From Eledone cirrhosa (lineage: Eukaryota): DNA of 64,000 nucleotides. The stretch spans positions 48,794,001-48,858,000 of the forward strand of contig OZ024750.1 in assembly GCA_964016885.1 (NCBI GenBank). The letters are read 5' to 3'. The position numbers were made by a program, and so were the translations under genes. How positions within the stretch are numbered: position 1 is the first letter of the stretch; the number at the start of each line of letters is the position of its first letter. A model generated the notes under the pieces. It made no database searches and was not told the origin of the DNA. It worked only from the letters and a program-made list of their open reading frames with translations. Shown in pieces: positions 755 to 58,017 of the stretch.

Positions 755-3700
755 CTGTTGCATTTATCTTGCTTTATGTTCATACGAGTTATCACCAAGT
801 CACAACCAGTGACCTCAAGAGACAACAAGGTCCGCCATGTTCAAGAAAGAACATACATACTCACACATGCATCTTTGGTGTTTAGACTTGTGATGTACTT
901 ATATTGGCTGAATCTTCCTTAGTATATGGGCAGTTCCAATTCGTACTATCTTTTGTATTTCTCCTATACGCGGGTTTCCTGGGATTTGCGATAACTAATC
1001 ATTAGACCCCTTAGATATTATTCCCAGAGCGCCTACAACCACTGGTATTGTTTTAGTTCTCAATTTCCACATTTTTCCAATTTCTATCTCCAGGTCCTTA
1101 TACTTGCTCAATTTTTCAAATGTTTGTATAAATACATTCTTGTCTATTGGAACGGACATATCAAATAGCAGGCATACCCTCTTTTTAAAGTCCTTCAATA
1201 TTATATCAGGTCTATTTGCATCTATTTTTCGGTCTGTTTCGATGCTAAAGTTCCACAAGATTGAGATGTGATATTTTTCAAGAATGGGATGTGGTTGATG
1301 CTCCCACCAATTCTTTTGATGGGGCAAGTCAAAATGTATCCAATGTATGTATTGTGCAGCTCTGTCATGCCTGTTCAGGTATTCGGTTGGAGCTATCGGA
1401 CTGCACATTGAAATTATATGGTCAATGGTCACTGGTTGTTTTTTGCATACACGGCATAATGGGCTGGATCCATTTTTTATTATGTTGGCTTGGTAATTTT
1501 TTGTTGGCAGACACTGATCTTGTGCTGATATAATCAGTCCTTCAGTCTCCGATTTCAGTCCAGAGGATGCCAACCACTGATGGATTAAAGTTTTGTCAAC
1601 ATCATGATTGTTAGCTCATTCTGGATATTTTCCATACAGAGGCTTTTCTTGCCATTTCTTAGCCAGTTTCTGTAGCAGTTCTTTCTTTGCAGTTACTTTT
1701 ACCTGCTTTGCTTTTTCTGTGTTTTCCATTTCAGCAGTAAATGGGACTTCTGAAATTTGTAGTCCATTACTGTATCTTTGTGCATCTTTTGTAATGGAAT
1801 ATGATCTGTTGATGCTTACGTGTTTCAAAACGAGTTTGATCACCCAATCATGTGATTCCTTTAGATATGTAGATAATCCAATTGTTGCAGTTTTCAACGC
1901 AATGTCTAACTGGATTAACCCACGTCCTCCTTCTTTCCTAGGGAGATATATTCTATCTATATCTGCCTGAGGGTGATGCATTCTGTGCATGGTTAAGAAT
2001 TTTCGAATTTTTGTATCGAGCCTACGGATCTCTGTGCTTGACCAGTTGATGACATTGTAACTGTAGGTTACGATAGGTATGGCAAGCATGTGTTTATGGC
2101 ATCGATCCTATTCCTTGCATTCAATTCCGTTCTTAAGATTGCTCTTACTCTGCGGTAACATTCCTTCCTTATCCTTTCCCTCATTGTCGAGTGCTTGATT
2201 CCGTCTCCTTCACAAACACCTAGATATTTGTAAGTTTTTTCTTGATCAAGTTCTCTTATCGCGTTCCCCCGATCAAGATTAATGTCTGAACTCTTAGCAG
2301 CTTTCCTCTGGTGAACGTTGCTTTGGCGCATTTATCTAGTCCAAACTCCATTTTAATGCCATCACTGAACTGCTCCACAGTGGATAATAGCCCTTGCAAT
2401 TGTTCATCATTTTTTGCAAATAATTTTAGGTCATCCATGTAGAACAAGTGATTAATGGTTTTGTCATAGACTTTATATACATGTTTTGTTTCATTGAGCA
2501 TTTCACTTAATGGTATAAGTGCGATGCAGAATAAAAGCGGTGATAAAGAGTCACCCTGAACAATTCCACAATTAATATTAACTTCTCCAGCTTCCAGTGA
2601 TTTTGTTTCACTAGTCAAAAGGAGTGTCGTTTTCCATGTCTTCATACTGAATGACAAAAATCTCCTGACAACGGGGGATATTTTGAAAATCTCTAAACAT
2701 TTTTCAATCCAACTGTGTCGCAAACTGTCGAATGCTTTTTTATAATATATCCACCAATCGATAGATTTTTGTGTCTATTATGACAATCTTCCAGTATCAT
2801 TTTGTTAACCAAAAGCTGATCCTTACAGCCATATGAGCCTTGTTTACACCCTTTATGTTCAATGGGAAATAGGTCATTTGTTATCAGGTGGTCATATGTG
2901 TATTCAGTTAGGACTGTTGTTAACATTTTATACATTGTGGTCAAGGAAGTTATCGGTCTGTAATTTTTGGGATTGCTTGTCTTATCATTCTTCGGAAGCA
3001 GGAATGTAATGCCGTTAACTAGCCATGATGGTATCTTTTCGGGCTCCTTAACTATTTCATTGTAAAGTTGGGCTAACAGCTCATGAGACTCTGTGAAGGC
3101 ATTTATCCAAAAGTTTTGTATTTTGTCTTTTCCTGGGGATTTCCTTTTGCTGGATTTTCTTAGAGCCAAGCGCAACTGTTCAACTGTTATATTTTCCCAT
3201 ATTTGTTCCTCAAGGTGAGCTGTATCTTTCATTTGTCTGTCTATCCATGGGGCATGTATGTTATGAACTTCTTCTTCGGCCCAAATCTTTACCCAGAATT
3301 CTTGCACTTCCTCTTTGGGTGGTATTGATTTAGCAGTTATTGTTGACTTACCAATTTTTCTGTAGAAGTTTCTTTGGTTGTTTTTGAACATATTATTGTC
3401 ATTATAGAATATAGATCGTTTTTCAAAGCGCCTTATACGAGCAGCTTTGGCCGACACTTTTTGCTTGATTATTTCTATCAGCATGTATATGTCACTTGTT
3501 GATTTTATACTGTACTTTCTTTTCAATTTTCTAAGTTTAGTTTGTTTAACATGTTCACCTACTTTATAGTTTGTTAAAACGTCTATGTCAGATCGGAGAA
3601 GGTTTATTTGGCGATTGATGTTCTCTTGCCAAGTAGATTTCTTGTGGGAATTCCTTTGTTTTTTCATCTTCACTCCACATAAGTGAGTGGTGACTTTAGC

Positions 3701-4600
3701 CGATGCATAATAGAGATGATTTAAATCAGTAATGTTCAGTTTGTTTGTGATGATAATGTATTTGAGAATTATGTTAGTCTTGTGTATTATCTTTTGGTTC
3801 TGTTTGGAGTTCTGGATCTTAGGGAGGGTGTCTCGTTTCCCCATGACAGATTCTTTCATTTTCATCCATTCGATCATAATTTCATCCTTCAAGTTGGCAA
3901 TTTCATTCTCATTCATTTCTTTATCATTTACGATCTCATTATATTCATTTGGAATTTCATCTTGAGCATGCACTCCCTCATGTTTCATTTTCCCTTCGCT
4001 GACTTTGTGCTAATAGCTTGATCTGATCAATTTCTATATCAGTTAGTAACTTTTTTCTTACAATATTTCTTCGTATATTGGCTAGTTTGTTACTGTCAAT
4101 ATAGCCTCTGTTTTCGGGATGTTTCTTTTTCCAGTTGATATATGTCTGTTCTGTATTCGATGTATTTGATGGGTAGTACATGGCAGTGTAGAAAGCCTCA
4201 AGGACTTCTTTATTATCTTCCCTTGATCATTTTTCTCTCTTTTTCTTTGGATTTCTTGGTGGTGAGCATGGAGGGCCAACAGTAGAAGTATTCCGGTTAT
4301 GGGAGGCCTCCAGCTCCGAAGTGATGGGAAGGTTTGAACCATTAGCTGATTTTTCGACCCCAGTCTGGTTCCTCTCTGAGTGACGCGGCCCTTTTTTACC
4401 CGGGTGACGGCCGATCCGGTATGAGATTTTATCATTAGACATTTACTTTATTTTGTCGCGTTTTATCCTTATCCGCCAAGGGGTAATCATTTCGTGTTAC
4501 CACTTCTAGAACGAGTGTCAACCAAGACTAGAGGGGTCGTTCTCCCCTAGAGACACGGCTATTCCCCGCCGGCCACCATCCCGGTATTTCTTGGTCACGG
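755..4600 (-). mobile_element. Full-length but decayed R4/Dong-clade non-LTR retrotransposon (RT plus restriction-like endonuclease)
   Basis: Frameshifted ORF pieces run from 4442 to ~900. RT motifs: NYRPITSL, QGDSLSPLLF, LFYMDDLK. Also present: GGRGL, a CCHC finger (CRVC...DHIISMC), RHD, RPD...FDMSVP...EKLSKY (RLE) and terminal GTAHILRK. The 3' end lies in (TAA)n, the known Dong/R4-type target. Confidence 0.92.
4440..4596 (-). ncRNA. Structured 5' leader of the R4/Dong element: candidate P4-less HDV-like ribozyme plus downstream small pseudoknot
   Basis: Sense strand: P1 GACCAA/TTGGTT (G-U first pair), P2 AGAAC/GTTCT, P3 GAC/GTC closing the 7-nt loop CCCTCTA. Downstream is a hairpin CCTT-GGCGGAT-AAGG whose GCG can pair with CGC after ATAAAA. 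G1 lies at the apparent element boundary. Confidence 0.55.
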
Positions 4601-5582
4601 GTTTTCTTTTTGTTTTTTTTTAAATTGTTATTATCATGAGTGGTTCCTTATTGTGAGCATTGCGTGGCTTAAGAATGATATTATTAATAAGTGTCTCCAC
4701 TCCAGGCACAAGGCCAGCAATCACCCAGTGTATTACAATAATATAATATACTTTTTGCTGAAGTTGCCTGTTATTGTTGTTGGCTATGTCGGTGGTGGTT
4801 CTGGGGCTTTTTATATTGTTGGTGAGGAAGGGGGGAGCCAGCAGTGCCATAGATGTTGACGTTTGGCCGGTGGCCAGGTCACTAAGTCAATCTAGTTATA
4901 TGTTTTGCTAGCCTCTCCCTTGTCTAGTGATACCGCGACCTTCCCCTTTCTTAAGTTAACAGGAGAATAGTGGTGGTAGCAATCAAGGAGTGGTGGCGGC
5001 GGTGATGGGATAGTAGTAGCAATGATGGATGGAGTGGTGGCGGCGGTGGCGTTGCCGTTACTGAGTTTTGTGATATGTAGTATCTATGAGTTTGTGTCGC
5101 GTATGTTTAATATATATTGTGTTGACATATTCCCGTAAAATTGGAATTAAACATTTTGATAAAACTTGAGTCAATAATAATAGTAATTATTATTATGATG
5201 CTGGGATTGGTGGTGGTGGTGGTGGTGGTGAAATTGCCGTTATCTGGCTGTTATATTTAGTGTGATGGGGTAGGTGGTGTATCAAGTTTCTGGTTTCGGT
5301 GAAATTGCTGTTATTTGGCTTTTCTATATAGTGTAGACAGAGGGTGTTTTCTTCCATTTATAACCATTTTCTTTTTTGAATACAAAATATATAATACAAA
5401 ATTGAATATTTGAGCGATATAACAATATAATATGGATCCGAAATTTTATGAGACTTGATTCGGTGGTTTATAGATCATTTGTACTAAGAATTGTTATTTC
5501 ACAATTGATTTAAATATGTTAAAAATCAAAAACTTACGGGAGCGATTTCATGACCTTTTACCACCACGTGCGTCTTCTTCCC

Positions 5583-5650
<68 letters not shown>
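5583..5650. repeat. (ATT)n microsatellite
   Basis: Pure trinucleotide run. Confidence 0.97.
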
Positions 5651-5652
<2 letters not shown>

Positions 5653-6079
5653 GCATTCATATTGTTTTTATGTTATTCCATTTCTAAGAATAAATATAAT
5701 TTCAGATGAAGAATGCCACGTGGGTTTGCACTCAAATCAACACAATCAGGTTTGCCACTAAACATTAACCTTCATAAATAAATGTATTGAGACGACAGAG
5801 AATATAAAGTATTTGTTTAATATAATTTTTAGGCTGAAAGAAATGTAGGTAAAATGAATCATACCGAAAATGTAGAGTTTCGTATGATCAAATGTAATCA
5901 TGCATGTATGTATGAATATTTGTATATATGTATATATGTATGTATGTATATATGTATGCATGTATGTTTGTATGTATGCATGTATGTATGCGTGTATGCA
6001 TGTATGTATGTTTGTATGTATGTATATATGCATGTATGTATTATTTTTGTATGTATGTGCGTATGTACATACATATATA

Positions 6080-20660: not shown

Positions 20661-21220
20661 ATGGTGGCTGCCAACTCGTTTTCGAGTACGGCCACTACTT
20701 TATATCCATGTAGGAGAACCCCTACCGATGCGCTGAACGAATGTGACTTTTTAGTCCAGCCAGCGACTTGAAAACTCTGGTACAAACACTACACCTGTGA
20801 CAATTATTGACACATAGTGCTGGGCCCATGGTACCATGTGACGACAAGTGCAGAGAGATCTCCAGATATAAAGCAATGCCTGTGCTGTGAAGCTTTTATA
20901 GTGAGCAAAGGCACTGCACAAAGCCAGTCCCACTCTCTTAACCAAGATGATATTTACCAAAAAGAAGAACAATTCAACATCATTGGATACCATCAGGGTT
21001 GCAGGTGTTATATCAGAGTTTTCCTTCTCCTAGAATTCTGCCTTGACAGAGGCTAAGGGGTCATCTCTCCCTGTGATTTTGGATGGCCATCGACTCTTAA
21101 GAGCTCCTTTGCCCTTTGAGAGGTTTTGTTTTTAGTCCTGCAGGATGTCCAAAGTCACCCTCCTCACCAAGAAACCTTGGTGGGGTTGCCAGTTTAGTCG
21201 CCAACGACCCGACCATGAGA
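20661..21220 (-). mobile_element. Bipartite non-autonomous RTE derivative (560 bp)
   Basis: Reverse complement of 25541-26100. The 5' part is homologous to the RTE leader; the 3' part encodes the RTE terminal zinc finger and 3' stem-loop. Confidence 0.88.
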
Positions 21221-22185: not shown

Positions 22186-22512
22186 TCCATATGAATCCTT
22201 TGAGGGCGGCTGGCTATGAAGCTAGCTGGTCAGCCGCCCTTTCTGTCTCTGGTTCCCGGACCCCGGGTTTTTCGGACCCATGGCTCTTTACATATTCCTT
22301 TGTATATTCCAATACCTGATGATAATCACCGGATTCATATGGAACCCGGTCATTGAAATGATCAAAGTATAATAAACCTTTCAAGGATTTACACCAGTCC
22401 AGCCTCCTGTTATTTCATTTATCAATAACTCCGTATTCGCACCACCAACTACACAAATGAAGATGGGTGAACAGCACTGCGTTGAGTACTCTTCACAATA
22501 TTACACCAGGAT

Positions 22513-22561
22513 TGACCATACGGAATGACCGGTTCTATCCAGTGGTGAACCATCAAACCTT

Positions 22562-22611
<50 letters not shown>

Positions 22612-22660
22612 AAGGTTTGATGGTTCACCACTGGATAGAACCGGTCATTCCGTATGGTCA
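22513..22660. repeat. Perfect palindrome (~52-bp arms) centred on a (TA)n tract
   Basis: tgaccatacgg...aaccttaaaa(ta)n ttttaaggtt...ccgtatggtca. Confidence 0.97.
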
Positions 22661-22978
22661 TGTGTTTCACCGCTCCTATTAATGACGTATTATTCGTTTT
22701 TTCCCATTCTTTGCCAGCGAACGTTTCCACGAACCAAAGTATCGTCTTCCTCTCTTCCTCCGGTTGCAACGTTTTTTGAAATATCCAGTTCTGCGTTTAC
22801 AGATTGACTTTGTTAGTTTCAGATGATCCCGTTAAGGGTGAAAGCAGCGATTCTTTGCTTAAACTTTAATCTGTTATTTTAATAAATATTTGCTCTACGG
22901 TTCTTATATATTTGATATATATTTATCCTTATCGAGCCCTCTTTGGATTTTAGTCTTCAAATTTATTATTATTGCTAT
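22661..22978 (+). mobile_element. 3' terminal fragment of Naiad family A
   Basis: Matches the reverse complement of ~12068-12385 and 15378-15605; ends in (TA)n. Confidence 0.92.
22815..22865 (+). ncRNA. Type I hammerhead-like motif with CAGANGA core (other copies at 15533-15583 + and 12180-12230 -)
   Basis: AGTTT-CAGATGA-T-CCC-gttaa-GGG-T-GAAA-GCA-loop-TGC-TT-AAACT. Confidence 0.65.
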
Positions 22979-25540: not shown

Positions 25541-26100
25541 TCTCATGGTCGGGTCGTTGGCGACTAAACTGGCAACCCCACCAATGTTTCTTGGTGAGGA
25601 GGGTGACTTTGGACATCCTGCAGGACTAAAAACAAAACCTGTCAAAGGGCAAGGGAGCTCTTAAGAGTCAATAGCCATCCAAAATCATTGGGAGAGATGA
25701 CCCCTTAGCCTTTGTCAAGGCAGAATTCTAGGAGAAGGAAAACTCTGATATAACACCTGCAACCCTGATGGTATCCAATGATGTTGACTTGTTCTTCTTT
25801 TTGGTAAATATCATCTTGGTTAAGAGAGTGGGACTGGCTTTGTGCAGTGCCTTTGCACACTATAAAAGCTTCACAGCACAGGCATTGCTTTATATCTGGA
25901 GATCTCTCTGCACTTGTCATCACATGGTACCATGGGCCCTGCACTATGTGTCAATAATGGTCACAAGTGTAGTCTTTGTACCAGAGTTTTCAAGTCGCTG
26001 GCTGGACTAAAAAGTCACATTCGTTCAGCGCATCGGTAGGGGTTCTCCTACATGGATATAAAGTAGTGGCCGTACTCGAAAACGAGTTGGCAGCCACCAT
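25541..26100 (+). mobile_element. Bipartite non-autonomous RTE derivative (560 bp) flanked by (GTAT)n
   Basis: The 5' part aligns with 27040-27252 (ctaggagaagg, gatgttga, gagagtggga, gcacaggcattgc). The 3' part reads CSLCTRVFKSLAGLKSHIRSAHR* and ends GGCCGTACTCGAAAACGAG..GGCAGCCACCAT, like 31341-31373. Confidence 0.9.
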
Positions 26101-26985
26101 GTATGTATGTATGTTACCCTATCGAGACTAAAGTCATCGACCTGTTGTCAAACTCTCTACTCTCTGATGAATGTATATATATATATGTGTGTGTATGTAT
26201 ATGTGTGTATATACATCACTCAGTCAAACAACCAGATTTCAACCCCAACATCTACAACAACAACAACACCGGCACTAATGTTTACAGCAACAACAGCTTC
26301 AGAATGAACTGAAATGAACATTTACAACAATTACAACAACAACAACAACAGCGGCATCAAAACATAAAAAAAGGAAGGGAAAAGAAAAAAGAAAAAAGAA
26401 AAAGGGAAGGGGAAAAAAAAAAAAAAAAAAAAGGAGGAAAAAAAAAAGAAAGGAAAAAAAAAAAAAAAAACTCAAAATAACAAAACACAAACACACACAC
26501 ACACACACACACACACAACAGAACAACAACATCAACTGCCACCACCACCACCACCGCCACCGCCGTCGCCATCACCATCACCAGCGACCTTAAGAACAAC
26601 TTTAATAATAATTTTTCTGCTTTTGGCACGGATCCAGCGACTGGCCCAGCGCATCACTGGTACTCTCTTTTGTTGACTCCGTGGAGAGCCATAACTCTAT
26701 GCTGTAAAGCAATTATAGTAATACTGGACTGTAATACGATCGGCTTCAACTATACAAACTCTTGAAAGTCAACAGTTGACATAATCTGGTAATCTTGTAT
26801 CAGTAATGACGGTAATATATATATATATATGTGTGTGTGTGCGTGTAAGTGAGTAGAGTAGCGTGTGTGTGTGTTTGTTGTGTGTGTGAGTGTTGCTGTG
26901 TGCACGCATATGTGTGCGTGTGTGTGTATGTCGTACGTATAAGTGTCAATAAGCAATTTTTTTTTTTTTTTTTTTTTTGCGCGGG

Positions 26986-27119
26986 GACATAGAAATAATC
27001 GGGCTGGATGCCCGATCGCGCAGTTAAGCCACTGGGAGTGAAGAACCCCTAGCCCATGTCAGGGTATTCTTCTAGGAGAAGGCATCTCAGGAAACTGGGT
27101 TAACTCCGATATAAAACCT
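26986..27119 (+). ncRNA. Structured 5' leader of the RTE element (HDV-like topology plus downstream pseudoknot)
   Basis: GACATAG/CCATGTC, hairpin ATCGGG/CCCGAT, GAAGAA/TTCTTC, CC/GG, then a GGAG/CTCC stem whose loop AGG is complementary to CCT at 27117-27119. Confidence 0.5.
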
Positions 27120-27281
27120 GCGGCTCAGTAGTTACCGATGATGTTGATCTTTTCTTCTTTTCGGGTTATAGCTACTGTCGCTCAGAGAGTGGGATTGGTT
27201 CAGTGCACAGTCTTTCCTCACTTTAAAAATATTCGTCACGCACAGGCATTGCACGAGTGCATTAATAATTATTAATAGTGT

Positions 27282-27367: not shown

Positions 27368-30300
27368 ATGATGTTCCGGAACAATGTAAACGAGATAATT
27401 GCCAATTTGGGTTCTGGAACAAAAGGGATCATTGGCAATAAGGGCAGGGGCCCCAAGTTATCACAACCTGGGCCCGCCCGTCATCGTGCCATTGTAATAG
27501 AGCCAAACAGGGCACTTAGTCTTGGCTGCTGGAACGTACGGACGCTGCTTGACGGGGATTCTTTGGAGCGTCCTGAACGAAGGACCGCTCTTGTTGCGAA
27601 GGAGCTTCGACGTTACGATCTTGACATCGTGGCTTTGTCTGAGACGAGGTTAGCTGGAGATGGTCATCTTACGGAATTTTGTGGAGAATATACATTCTTC
27701 TGGAAAGGAAGAGATGAAGGAACCAGAAGAGAGGCTGGGGTAGGATTTGCTGTTAAGACTGTACTGGTGAATAAATTAGAAGAATTCCCAGTGGGGATTA
27801 GTGAGCGTCTTATGTCCATGAGAGTTCCGCTGGACAAGGGAAGATATGCTACCCTGGTGAGTGTGTATGCTCCAACTATGAATTCTGTCGATGAAGAAAA
27901 ACTGTCCTTTTACCATGCCTTGAAAGGTGTTTTAAGAAATATCCCTCAGGCAGACAAAGTCATCGTGCTTGGTGACTTTAATGCTAGAGTGGGTAGGGAT
28001 TTTAACACATGGAATGTAATCGGAAGGCATGGGGTGGGAAAGTGTAACAGCAATGGTATGCTCTTGCTGCAGATGTGTGAGGAGCTGGATCTGTGTGTTA
28101 CCAACACCATGTTCCAACAAAAGAACAAATTCAAGACCACATGGATGCATCCTGCATCTAAGGAATGGCATCTTTTGGACTACGTCCTAGTCAGGATGCG
28201 TGACAGACAGGATGTGCAGTGTGTTCGTGTTCTTCGTGGAGCTGAGTGCTGGACGGACCACCGCCTGGTACGCGCAAAAGTGAATCTAATCACCAGACGT
28301 AAAATCCGGGCTCCTGGTGTTATCCTGCCCAAAAGATTGAATGCTGCTCGTCTTAAGGATAAAAATGTGAAGAGGACATTGGAAGAAGAGATGCAGGCTG
28401 CAGATCTTGGTGAGGATTGGCCGACCCTTAAAAAGTCGGGTTATGATGTAGGCAGACGTGTTCTGGGATTGGTGCAGAGAAAACATCAGGACTGGTTTGA
28501 TGAGAAAGATGTGCATATAGATGACTTGTTGGCTGATAAGAGGCGCGCTCTGTCACGCTACTTGACGGCAAAACCACGGGAGAGGAATACGTTGCATGAG
28601 GAGCTCAGGGATGTAAAATCACGTGTTAGGCGGAGTCTTTCTCAGATGAAGGATCAGTGGTGGAGTGAGAAGGCTGGTGAGATACAAACTGCGTCTGATT
28701 GCAATAACACAAAGCTGTTGTACAGTCTCTTGCGTGAGGTTTATGGACCGTCTTCTTCTCTGGTGACACCGATTCGCAGCAGGGATGGCAAAGAACTTCT
28801 TCGTGACTCACAGGGAATTCTACGAAGGTGGCGAGAGCACTTTGATGATCTTTTGAATCAGCCGTCTGTCGTCAGTGAAGATTTCCTCAATCTCATTCCG
28901 GAAAGTCCTGTGAAAGTAGCTCTCGCAGAACCTCCGACACTTGTGGAGGTTGCAGTGGCTATTTCGAAGCTGAACAGTGGAAGATCTCCAGGTATGGATG
29001 GCATACATGCTGAGCTCCTACAATATGGTGGTGAGAGACTCCTGCAACATCTTCACTCTCTGTTTGGAGGGATATGGGCTAATGAATCCGTGCCTGAGGA
29101 CTGGAGAGATGCGGTAATGGTGGTCTTGTACAAGGGAAAGGGTAACAGGAATGATTGTGGGAACTACAGAGGTATATCATTGCTTTCTGTCGTGGGGAAA
29201 GTTTTATGTAGGGTGCTTCTGGACCGTCTGCTGACACACATTGCAGATTGTGTCCTTCCTGAAAGTCAATCTGGTTTTCGTGTTGGACGCGGCACTACTG
29301 ATATGATCTTCTCAGCTAGACAGCTCCAGGAGAAGTGCATTGAACAGGGCTTGGATCTGTATCAGGTTTTTGTCGATCTGACAAAGGCTTTCGATACTGT
29401 CAACAGAGATGCATTATGGAAGGTTCTCCAGAAACTTGGTTGCCCTGATAAGTTCCTTGCTTTAGTTAGGTCTTTCCATGACGACATGAAGGCTTGGGTC
29501 AATGTCGGAGGTAACATGTCGGAGCCTATCTCAGTAAAAAATGGAGTGAAACAGGGGGATATTCCAGCACCGACCCTGTTTGCCATATACTTTGCAATGG
29601 TTTTCTGTATTGCATTCAGGAATTGCGAGCATGGTGTTTACATCCGATATCGAACCTCAGGCAGCATATTTAACATCAGGCGCTTTGCTGCGAAGACAAA
29701 GGTATTTACATCAGTCATAAGAGACCTCTTGTATGCAGATGATTGCGATCTTGTAGCGCACACAGAGAGTGATATGCAGCACATTTTGAATGTATTTTCT
29801 GACGCTTGCACTGCCCTGGGTTTGACTGTCAGTCTCAAGAAAACCGTCGTCATGTACCAACCTGCACCTGGTGGGCAGTACACTGAACCAAACATCTATG
29901 TGTATGGCAAACGACTTGGAGTGGTTGATCAGTTTGTCTACCTGGGAAGCACTGTCAATCGATACGGCAACCTTGACGGTGAAATCTCACTTAGGATTAG
30001 GAAAGCAAGTGATGCTTTCGGAAAGCTAGAAAGGCGACTCTGGGGTCGGCGAGACATATGCAGGAGGACAAAGGTAAAGGTGTACAGGGCATGTGTACTC
30101 TCTTGTCTTCTTTATGCCTGCGAGACCTGGGTCACATATCGACGCCACCTTAAGCAATTGGAGCGTTTCCATCAGATGTGTCTCAGACGGATACATGGCG
30201 TTCGCTGGAGGGACCACATCAGTGATGTCGAGATTTTGGAAAGCTCTATGTGTGACAGTATAGAAGCTCTTGTGCTTAAGCAGCGACTCCGTTGGAGTGG

Positions 30301-30913
30301 TCACCTTGCCAGGATGAAGGATTCTAGAATACCAAAACAACTCTTCTATGGAGAGTTGGTTAAAGGAAAACGACCGCCACATAAACCAAAAAAGAGGTAT
30401 AAGGATTCCTTGAAGGCCTCTCTGAAAGACGCTAACATCTCTGCTGATACATGGGAAAATATTGCTGCTGATCGTAATAAATGGAGAAAGACTGTATATG
30501 AGGGAAAAGTTGCCTTTGAGGCATCTCGAATCGCACACGAGAAAGTAAAGCGGGACGTGAGGAAGGGTATTGCTGTTGCACTTCCAGACGGCGAGGGTCC
30601 TCCTATGTTTCTGACATGCAGCGTCTGTGCGAGACTCTGCCTAAGCAAAGCTGGACTCGAAAGTCATCTTCGCAGTCATAAAGTAAGACCAGTGGTTGAC
30701 TACCAGGCTGCTGTTGGAGATGCTACTCATCATGCTTGCCAAACATGTGGTAGAGAATGTAAATCAGCAGGAGGACTCAAGCGACATGCAAAAGTACACG
30801 AACTCCAACCACAGCCGACTATTCCCAGTAAATGTTTTGGTTGCCGACTCTGTGCAAGACATTTTAGATCATTGGCTGGGCTAAAAAGCCACATTCGATC
30901 GCAGCACTGTTAG
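27368..30913 (+). CDS. RTE LINE polyprotein, 1181 aa: APE endonuclease, reverse transcriptase and three C2H2 zinc fingers
   Basis: Uninterrupted ORF. EN motifs WNVRTL, LSETR, VYAP, GDFNA, LDY, TDH; RT motifs NYRGISL, QSGFR, DLTKAFD, GVKQG, YADD, YLGS; fingers CSVC..HLRSH, CQTC..HAKVH, CRLC..HIRSQH. Confidence 0.96.
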   Translation: MMFRNNVNEIIANLGSGTKGIIGNKGRGPKLSQPGPARHRAIVIEPNRALSLGCWNVRTLLDGDSLERPERRTALVAKELRRYDLDIVALSETRLAGDGHLTEFCGEYTFFWKGRDEGTRREAGVGFAVKTVLVNKLEEFPVGISERLMSMRVPLDKGRYATLVSVYAPTMNSVDEEKLSFYHALKGVLRNIPQADKVIVLGDFNARVGRDFNTWNVIGRHGVGKCNSNGMLLLQMCEELDLCVTNTMFQQKNKFKTTWMHPASKEWHLLDYVLVRMRDRQDVQCVRVLRGAECWTDHRLVRAKVNLITRRKIRAPGVILPKRLNAARLKDKNVKRTLEEEMQAADLGEDWPTLKKSGYDVGRRVLGLVQRKHQDWFDEKDVHIDDLLADKRRALSRYLTAKPRERNTLHEELRDVKSRVRRSLSQMKDQWWSEKAGEIQTASDCNNTKLLYSLLREVYGPSSSLVTPIRSRDGKELLRDSQGILRRWREHFDDLLNQPSVVSEDFLNLIPESPVKVALAEPPTLVEVAVAISKLNSGRSPGMDGIHAELLQYGGERLLQHLHSLFGGIWANESVPEDWRDAVMVVLYKGKGNRNDCGNYRGISLLSVVGKVLCRVLLDRLLTHIADCVLPESQSGFRVGRGTTDMIFSARQLQEKCIEQGLDLYQVFVDLTKAFDTVNRDALWKVLQKLGCPDKFLALVRSFHDDMKAWVNVGGNMSEPISVKNGVKQGDIPAPTLFAIYFAMVFCIAFRNCEHGVYIRYRTSGSIFNIRRFAAKTKVFTSVIRDLLYADDCDLVAHTESDMQHILNVFSDACTALGLTVSLKKTVVMYQPAPGGQYTEPNIYVYGKRLGVVDQFVYLGSTVNRYGNLDGEISLRIRKASDAFGKLERRLWGRRDICRRTKVKVYRACVLSCLLYACETWVTYRRHLKQLERFHQMCLRRIHGVRWRDHISDVEILESSMCDSIEALVLKQRLRWSGHLARMKDSRIPKQLFYGELVKGKRPPHKPKKRYKDSLKASLKDANISADTWENIAADRNKWRKTVYEGKVAFEASRIAHEKVKRDVRKGIAVALPDGEGPPMFLTCSVCARLCLSKAGLESHLRSHKVRPVVDYQAAVGDATHHACQTCGRECKSAGGLKRHAKVHELQPQPTIPSKCFGCRLCARHFRSLAGLKSHIRSQHC

Positions 30914-57729: not shown

Positions 57730-57842
57730 ATGTATAATCCTTTCTCAAAATCCTGGTTGTTCCTCAGTGACGAGACTTGTATAAGGTATCCCTGCTAGTA
57801 CCAGTTGTATCTCCGTGTACTCAACAGTTAAGATACTATATA

Positions 57843-57913
<71 letters not shown>

Positions 57914-58017
57914 TCTTAACTGTTGAGTACACGCAGATACAACTGGTACTAGCAGGGATACCTTATACAAGTCTCGTCACTGAGGAATAACCAGGATTTT
58001 GAGAAAGGATTATACAT
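57730..58017. repeat. Palindrome with ~107-bp arms (2 mismatches) centred on (TA)n
   Basis: atgtataatcc...agttaagatac(ta)n gtatcttaact...ggattatacat. Confidence 0.97.

Follow-up and report, generated by a model that had tools for sequence, protein, structure and literature searches.

The leaders of LINEs with two different protein architectures, the APE-type RTE and the RLE-type R4 elements, have in common one structured RNA module with compensatory changes in its helices, as a preliminary description of this DNA had proposed. The module is a real and widespread structured RNA, known as a sequence and apparently new as a fold, and it is predicted to consist of two tandem pseudoknots, PK-A followed by a weaker PK-B. 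A putative role in cap-independent translation is plausible.

The fold would give a testable job to a catalogued sequence block of unrelated retrotransposon leaders. It bears on two questions, namely the function of the conserved SINE body and the translation of single-ORF LINEs that have kilobase-long, ATG-rich leaders. With a covariation-supported fold for that half of the Ceph-domain which derives from RTE, both become accessible to mutation and rescue of an RNA of 70 nt. The UTRs of RTE elements are also being engineered for gene insertion (PMC13708176).

Retrotransposons of the window

The window, by which we mean the whole 64-kb stretch of DNA that was analysed, belongs to a 3.0-Gb animal genome assembly. 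Three retrotransposons lie in it: an RTE LINE with an intact ORF that encodes APE, RT and zinc fingers; an RLE-type LINE, which is broken, on the minus strand; and a bipartite non-autonomous element derived from RTE (SINE), which is present twice. The three are large young families with 2417, 1617 and 1858 first-look candidates, respectively, of which 40 per family were scored. The two coding regions are:

27368 to 30913, plus strand: intact RTE ORF (APE endonuclease, RT, C2H2 fingers)
995 to 4445, minus strand: RT-RLE ORF, broken in the window copy, with ATG at 4442 and a preceding in-frame TAA (4445-4443)

An intact copy of the RLE-type family (locus L167) encodes 1213 aa in a single ORF, with RT followed by CCHC and an RLE endonuclease as judged from C-terminal motifs; aa 446-1159 match R2 structures in their RT-endonuclease part. 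The family is putatively R4/Dong, a label that comes from the preliminary description and from N-terminal motifs. Protein searches for R4 relatives gave no match with a fragment and three, none with genomic context, with the full-length sequence; no R4 relative was found in IMG/VR, and an N-terminal search of MAGs G001-G003 returned only one weak, broken match.

Directly 3' of the RTE, positions 30950-52200 form ~21 kb of uniform composition, several phases of which have long stop-free frames; the single frame tested has no Pfam match, and the region looks like a tandem satellite. Inverted arms flanking (AT)n tracts at 22510-22663 and 57781-57965, with sub-threshold miRNA-like hairpin scores, are probably inversion junctions of repeats.

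A predicted tandem-pseudoknot fold

The RTE and R4-type leaders can be aligned almost without gaps over 100 columns, only 40 of which are identical. The strands on which the preliminary description was based were all located: in the RTE, GACATAG (26986-26992), GAAGAA (27040-45), CCATGTC (27054-60) and TTCTTC (27067-72), and in the R4-type leader, on the minus strand, the series from 4596 to 4458.

Features of the RTE leader (plus strand):
26115 to 26978: 5' UTR upstream of the module, ~0.87 kb, microsatellite-rich, with 13 upstream ATGs (871 nt common to 14/30 copies)
26979 to 27033: candidate upstream domain (P0, X-a, AGAAATA linker, hairpin A), proposed from two families only
26979-83 with 27017-21: helix P0
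26986-90: strand X-a, able to pair with the H3 loop
26998-27016: hairpin A
27034 to 27072: PK-A (covariation, covariance-model match)
27034-36 with 27046-49: PK-A stem H2
27040-45 (P2a, in the H2 loop) with 27067-72 (P2b): PK-A long helix P2
27052-65: hairpin H3, in the connecting loop of PK-A
27075 to 27119: PK-B (outside the window genome only a GG/CC core is kept)
27075-78 with 27104-07: PK-B 4-bp stem, GGAG/CTCC
27080-82 (loop AGG) with 27117-19 (CCT): PK-B triplet pairing, with an A-rich linker between
27086-99: hairpin inserted in PK-B
27129 to 27275: in-frame TAG (27129-31), then a 45-codon upstream ORF (ATG 27138, stop 27273-75)

Features of the R4-type leader (minus strand):
4602 to 5670: 5' UTR upstream of the module, ~1.07 kb, with 11 upstream ATGs
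4548 to 4601: candidate upstream domain (P0, GACCAAG, AGAAATA, hairpin A)
4559-4555: strand with which the loop of hairpin A may pair
4508 to 4547: PK-A (covariation, covariance-model match)
4547-44 with 4536-33: H2
4543-37 (P2a) with 4514-08 (P2b): P2
4528-17: H3
4458 to 4501: extra hairpin (4501-4482) and PK-B
4481-78 with 4470-67: PK-B stem, its loop GCG pairing with CGC at 4460-58

Modules in the SINE:
25689 to 25758, plus strand: copy a (element at ~25541-26100)
21003 to 21073, minus strand: second copy

PK-A is predicted to have a G-rich 4-bp stem, H2, the loop of which pairs with a downstream strand over 6-7 bp (P2), and its connecting loop would carry a 3-5-bp hairpin, H3. After one or two further bases, PK-B is predicted to comprise a 3-4-bp stem, a GG loop, an A-rich linker and CC. 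In SINE copy a, H3 and PK-B are intact and the long pseudoknot helix P2 has decayed.

Sequences beyond the window came from further families of the window genome, from a metagenome scan (at least 120 stretches) and from host-like contigs in three MAGs. Across 23 distinct modules, 93% of the PK-A cells are paired, compared with at most 49% in slid-partner controls, and 10 of the 15 PK-A pairs have changes on both sides, a count lowered by four RTE-type rows that are out of register. The compensatory changes affect 6/7 pairs of P2 and 3/4 pairs of H3. The PK-A covariation score was reached in 0/500 shuffles, a control that overstates significance because the sequences are related; nor are these comparisons probabilities, since the modules were picked by a pairing descriptor and the structure was derived from the same sequences. 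When PK-A and PK-B are taken together in the 15 outside modules only, 10 of 22 pairs have changes on both sides. PK-B is less strongly supported than PK-A, mainly by the invariant GG/CC and a few swaps. In an older subfamily of the R4 family, P2 differs by a swap from A-U to G-C. Such compensatory changes in P2 and H3 would be unexpected for a DNA motif, and they make it very improbable that the module is a promoter or enhancer monomer acting as DNA, with an incidental fold, as might be suggested by the tandem monomers in a LINE leader and by the speculation of Kojima on transcription-factor binding.

A covariance model built from the 15 modules of other genomes only, and run unfiltered across the window, is an independent test. 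It ranked the two SINEs (E-values 1e-15 and 1e-15), the RTE (3e-10) and the R4 (2e-6) as its top four matches, with the next match at 0.09; the shared leader is real. The pairing descriptor gave five matches in a reversed control of 1.7 Mb compared with several hundred in real loci, most of which had been chosen for holding the module. Single-sequence folding gave no signal (z -1.9 to +1.0), as is expected for pseudoknots. By eye, the published consensus sequences of RTE-3_BF and SepiaSINE keep a 7-bp P2, and the PK-B stem of RTE-3_BF is changed compensatorily (PMC5786205 supplement). Rfam searches returned nothing at the R4 leader and one sub-threshold opposite-strand snoRNA match at the RTE leader, and no relevant family was present in six related loci or among the best 150 of 591 whole-window matches.

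An additional domain upstream of PK-A, with P0 and hairpin A, may be common to the window RTE and R4, as these two families suggest; P0 has compensatory differences between them. Here the preliminary description had placed a helix P1. Both of its strands exist in the RTE, but their pairing holds an A-C mismatch. This P1 is possibly a pairing, X, of the 5' strand with the H3 loop in the window RTE and R4 only: X has 5-6 bp and the same register in these two alone (75 versus 77 nt), and ten other modules have 4-5 bp at scattered distances. An apparent 8-bp P1 of the SINE was dropped because a microsatellite separates both strands in related subfamilies. Two motifs thought to be common to the leaders turned out to be less general, AGCC being a variant of the window RTE copy (AACC in 29/29 other RTE copies) and the ATAAAA before the triplet reading ATAACA in the SINE.

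Some loci were dropped as module families, either because they contain a palindromic element (L108, L212, L221) or because they have no PK-A (L208/L210/L211, L213, L215, L216). The palindromic (fold-back) element, at L212:2000-2600 and in L221, is unrelated to the module and measures ~0.6-0.8 kb. In RTE-type families, at L147:2190-2420 and in the window at 25645-25800, the module is preceded by an arm that is complementary to another arm closely following it, and the two would enclose the module in a long-range stem. Another RTE-type non-autonomous family of the window genome (L106:8785-9353, minus-strand count; L114, L124, L081) has tandem units of 48-112 nt, each of which can form a small A-rich H-type pseudoknot. 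In L177, the autonomous relative of this family, knots of this kind occur together with PK-A.

Distribution and relation to a published sequence block

In 480 kb of the window genome sampled irrespective of the module, the model found 10 matches; they fall into about five families, two of which are additional RTE families. A metagenome locus, L324, is a second R4 element, independent of the first. Its protein shows 36% identity over aa 7-413 (E 2e-47) to that of the window-family R4, and two tandem modules precede its ORF. Together with the outside RTEs L303, L318, L334, L335, L448 and L499, which have one to three modules each, this element shows that the sharing is not peculiar to the window genome. 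The RTEs L177 and L229 also carry the module. In the window RTE and R4 it is the last module copy before the ORF. Metagenome RTE-type elements (L299-L418) repeat it in tandem in units of 71 nt, and in many copies the start coincides exactly with a boundary of the module. The bacterial MAGs G001-G003 include contigs (L422, L446, L448) that bear SINEs and LINEs of animal type, have 47, 17 and 4 model matches and are probably host contamination; the outside-only model also matches SINEs carrying the Ceph 5' motif in G001 and G002. IMG/VR gave nine pattern matches, which look like chance.

The sequence block itself, and its sharing between RTE and R4, have already been published (PMC5786205). The published block lies in mid-UTR, is sometimes duplicated, and occurs in RTE LINEs, RTE-derived SINEs, one Ingi and one R4 (R4-1_ADi, at 135-179 of a 652-nt UTR) (PMC5786205). 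The module corresponds to this conserved RTE 5'-UTR domain, which is the Ceph-domain's 3' half: the same core can be recognised by eye in OegopSINE, SepiaSINE and RTE-3_BF (PMC5786205), and the module has the same mid-UTR position, presence in RTEs, SINEs and sporadic R4s, and occasional duplication. The main text of that paper makes no mention of a pseudoknot, IRES or stem, and a literature search, covering mostly journals outside subscription, found no published description of the fold. Compared with PMC5786205, the new points are a tandem-pseudoknot fold supported by covariation, the addition of two R4 families, and the candidate upstream domain of the window RTE and R4.

Position within the elements and the ribozyme question

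The module had been placed at the 5' ends of the elements; it lies 0.9-1.1 kb inside them. In 30 RTE and 30 R4 copies, retrieved with queries placed downstream of the module, shared sequence extends upstream of it for 871 nt (14/30 RTE copies) or 1009-1078 nt (13/30 R4 copies), with 13 and 11 ATGs, respectively. The remaining copies have scattered 5' ends, five of them inside the module. No 5' junction fell within 30 nt of the proposed P1 start (0/30 RTE, 0/30 R4). The suggested 5' processing thus finds no counterpart among the 60 junctions, and the module, which is internal and is the starting point of none of these copies, is therefore not a 5'-processing ribozyme. Both LINE families have sharp full-length 5' ends (26115 and ~5670) beyond very long microsatellite-laden UTRs, and no ribozyme was recognised at these two ends.

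HDV-like ribozymes have the helix order P1a-P2a-P3/L3-P1b-P1.1-P4-J4/2-P2b. The topology assigned earlier to the module does not agree with this order, as P2a lies in the H2 loop with no P3 after it, and the supposed P1b is the loop of the covarying H3. An unpaired catalytic C in J4/2 is absent from the 15 sequences inspected; the base in question closes H3, as G-C in 13 and A-U in 2. The fold is not HDV-like, and Rfam gives no match. The module is internal, and no Rfam match to twister was obtained at E up to 5-10.

Related precedents exist in LINE leaders. The HDV-like ribozymes of R2, R4, RTE and L1Tc are likewise pseudoknotted RNAs in 5' UTRs of both APE and RLE clades, and have been proposed to aid cap-independent translation (PMC6765202), but the module differs from them in helix order, has no free catalytic C, is internal and has no Rfam match. 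The Twister T-variant of the Perere-3 RTE is also a structured RNA in an RTE leader and has been linked to single-ORF translation; such T-variants sit at the 5' end and cleave (PMC8501958), whereas the module has no twister match. Ribozymes are known in RTE and R4 leaders (PMC6765202, PMC8501958, PMC5786205), and one metagenome family has sharp ends at the boundary of PK-A and PK-B; both might point to a self-cleaving ribozyme, either HDV-like or of a new class cutting between PK-A and PK-B. We regard this as scarcely credible, given the lack of HDV helix order, a candidate catalytic C that closes H3 and covaries with its partner, the 0/60 junctions at the P1 start, and SINEs that carry the block intact behind their heads.

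The sharp ends comprise 5' junctions at the PK-A/PK-B boundary in 23 of 51 loci of that metagenome family, five of them with a short duplication, a count biased by a search pattern that starts at this boundary. In the window RTE family, 17 of 48 distinct places start there (hand count among the first 100 of 298 matches), the 48 places having a microsatellite within 30 nt of the start; this pile-up is confounded by microhomology, because other TA/TG positions are favoured too. Our reading of the pile-up is that RT halts on reaching the stable P2 helix, at its 3' edge; it may instead mark a defined RNA end.

The pile-up in the metagenome family, weaker in the window RTE family, would also fit a site at which the element's own RT protein binds or pauses, serving RNP assembly or completion of the 5' junction in the manner of the R2 5' RNA pseudoknot, and such a site could account for the independent retention of the module in many non-coding SINEs (PMC5786205). 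However, one RNA would then need to bind both APE-RT and RT-RLE proteins, most window-family copies reach far past the boundary, and the pile-up may have other causes: RT may stop passively where a helix is stable, a subfamily may start there, the search pattern may be biased, or there may be TA microhomology to the microsatellite target. We regard a site of this kind as possible, but as less likely than the engagement of ribosomes discussed below.

Still less probable, in our view, is that the pseudoknots block 5'-3' exonucleases in an xrRNA-like or cap-like way and thereby stabilise uncapped LINE and SINE RNA. Tandem duplication, use across clades and retention in SINEs would all fit such a block, as would copies starting at module edges in two metagenome families, and the R2 ribozyme fold is stated in a review to give such protection (PMC13708176). 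Ends at the PK-A/PK-B boundary, however, would imply that the stronger knot is digested while the weaker one resists, and the 60 window-family copies have no junction at the 5' edge of the module.

The triplet and the reading frame

The triplet pairing of PK-B had been compared with the codon-anticodon mimicry of dicistrovirus IGR IRESs and proposed to set the reading frame. The swap of AGG/CCT for GCG/CGC is present, but 12 of the 13 outside modules have a broken third pair, and in another family the pairing spans 4 bp. The R4 triplet also has a GTG/CAC variant, which was left out of the count since CpG decay explains it.

The next ATG does lie in the frame of the triplet, as claimed (+21 in the RTE, +18 in the R4, +12 in the SINE), but in both LINE families a stop intervenes: TAG in 29/29 RTE copies matching the test pattern (30 examined) and TAA in 29/30 R4 copies. 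The in-frame ATG of the window RTE opens the 45-codon upstream ORF and not the main ORF, the frame of which relative to the triplet varies among copies because microsatellite length differs. In eight coding elements, several of them decayed copies, the main ORF starts at distances of 18-251 nt, with all three frames represented, and in none of them does the triplet frame lead into it: in seven a stop follows after 3-19 codons, and in the eighth the main ORF is in another frame. Seven coding elements have an ATG within 120 nt after the module, and in five of them the first one shares the triplet frame, a weak trend (p ~0.05 by hand) among related and partly decayed copies.

The closest formal parallel is to type 6 (dicistrovirus IGR) IRESs, especially 6c and 6f, which are likewise compact tandem pseudoknots with a small 3' knot before the coding sequence (10.1101/2024.04.17.590008); as in these, an Ala codon follows CCT in RTE-type families of the window genome. 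The module shares the arrangement of tandem pseudoknots ending in a small 3' pseudoknot, the support for PK-B being the weaker. In contrast to type 6 IRESs, it has no P1.1/L1.1 domain, no long PKI stem and no constant 3-bp mimic; the frame after its knot is closed by a stop, and the ORFs start at AUG. By eye, the alignments contain no helix-loop-helix around the PK-A stem that would correspond to a PKII domain with P1.1 and L1.1a/L1.1b, and none of the eight coding elements has a PKI triplet directly before an open protein frame.

A dicistrovirus-type element whose triplet mimics the codon-anticodon pair is therefore very unlikely: the small terminal pseudoknot, the swapped 3-bp pairing, the Ala codon and the five in-frame ATGs speak for it, and against it stand the early in-frame stops, the wrong frame of the eighth element, the broken third pair, the 4-bp variant, the missing P1.1/L1.1 and the lack of an Rfam match. 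Frame setting of the main ORF by the triplet is largely refuted. Transposons are not mentioned in the available text of two papers on type 6 IRESs (10.1101/2024.04.17.590008, PMC12221177), and in that of PMC3894237 there is only speculation that IGR-type IRESs might exist in non-LTR elements.

A possible role in engaging ribosomes

The explanation that we favour, tentatively and with somewhat less than even confidence, is that the module is a ribosome-engaging element, and we place it ahead of RT-protein binding and nuclease protection. Since two protein architectures use the module and non-coding SINEs keep its fold, it most simply acts on a host machine; its crossing between APE and RLE clades likewise suggests a host-facing role. 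In LINE RNA, the module would recruit the ribosome past the upstream ATGs. Initiation would then take place not at the triplet but at an AUG lying 18-250 nt downstream, which the ribosome would reach by scanning a short distance or by reinitiating once it has passed small upstream ORFs. In SINEs, the fold may tether the RNA to ribosomes engaged in making LINE protein, a role also ascribed to the Alu domain. A ribosome-engaging element would thus explain how upstream ATGs are bypassed in LINEs as well as the retention in SINEs, the latter being left unexplained by plain IRES activity.

This role is favoured by the presence of the module in LINEs with different protein layouts (RTE; R4 here and L324; Ingi and R4-1_ADi, PMC5786205), by the place of the module as the last copy before the ORF, with 13 (RTE) and 11 (R4) ATGs upstream of it, by the observation that the copied RNA is not cut at the module (60 junctions), and by the weak trend of the first ATG to lie in the triplet frame. 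Against it, the distance from module to main ORF varies from 18 to ~250 nt, the block of R4-1_ADi lies far from the end of the UTR, and tandem 71-nt modules also occur without an ORF in view.

The Alu domain of SINE1 is a possible functional analogue, being a folded RNA kept for retrotransposition through ribosome docking (PMC7245038). The module is unrelated to it in sequence and fold, and derives from a LINE UTR and not from 7SL RNA. A broader and more doubtful proposal is that the tandem-pseudoknot RNA, having spread widely and been exchanged horizontally, represents a new class of ribosome-binding element of cellular mobile elements that serves both LINE translation and SINE tethering. If this were true, cap-independent translation of single-ORF LINEs would extend to at least three clades, and an Alu-like tether for SINE parasites would explain the conservation of the "conserved SINE body".

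Several elements have, downstream of the module, a stop codon that overlaps or adjoins a start codon, as AUGA in L177 (3670-3720) and L318 and as UAAAUG in the R4 (window 4445-4440), and this arrangement may hint at termination-reinitiation.
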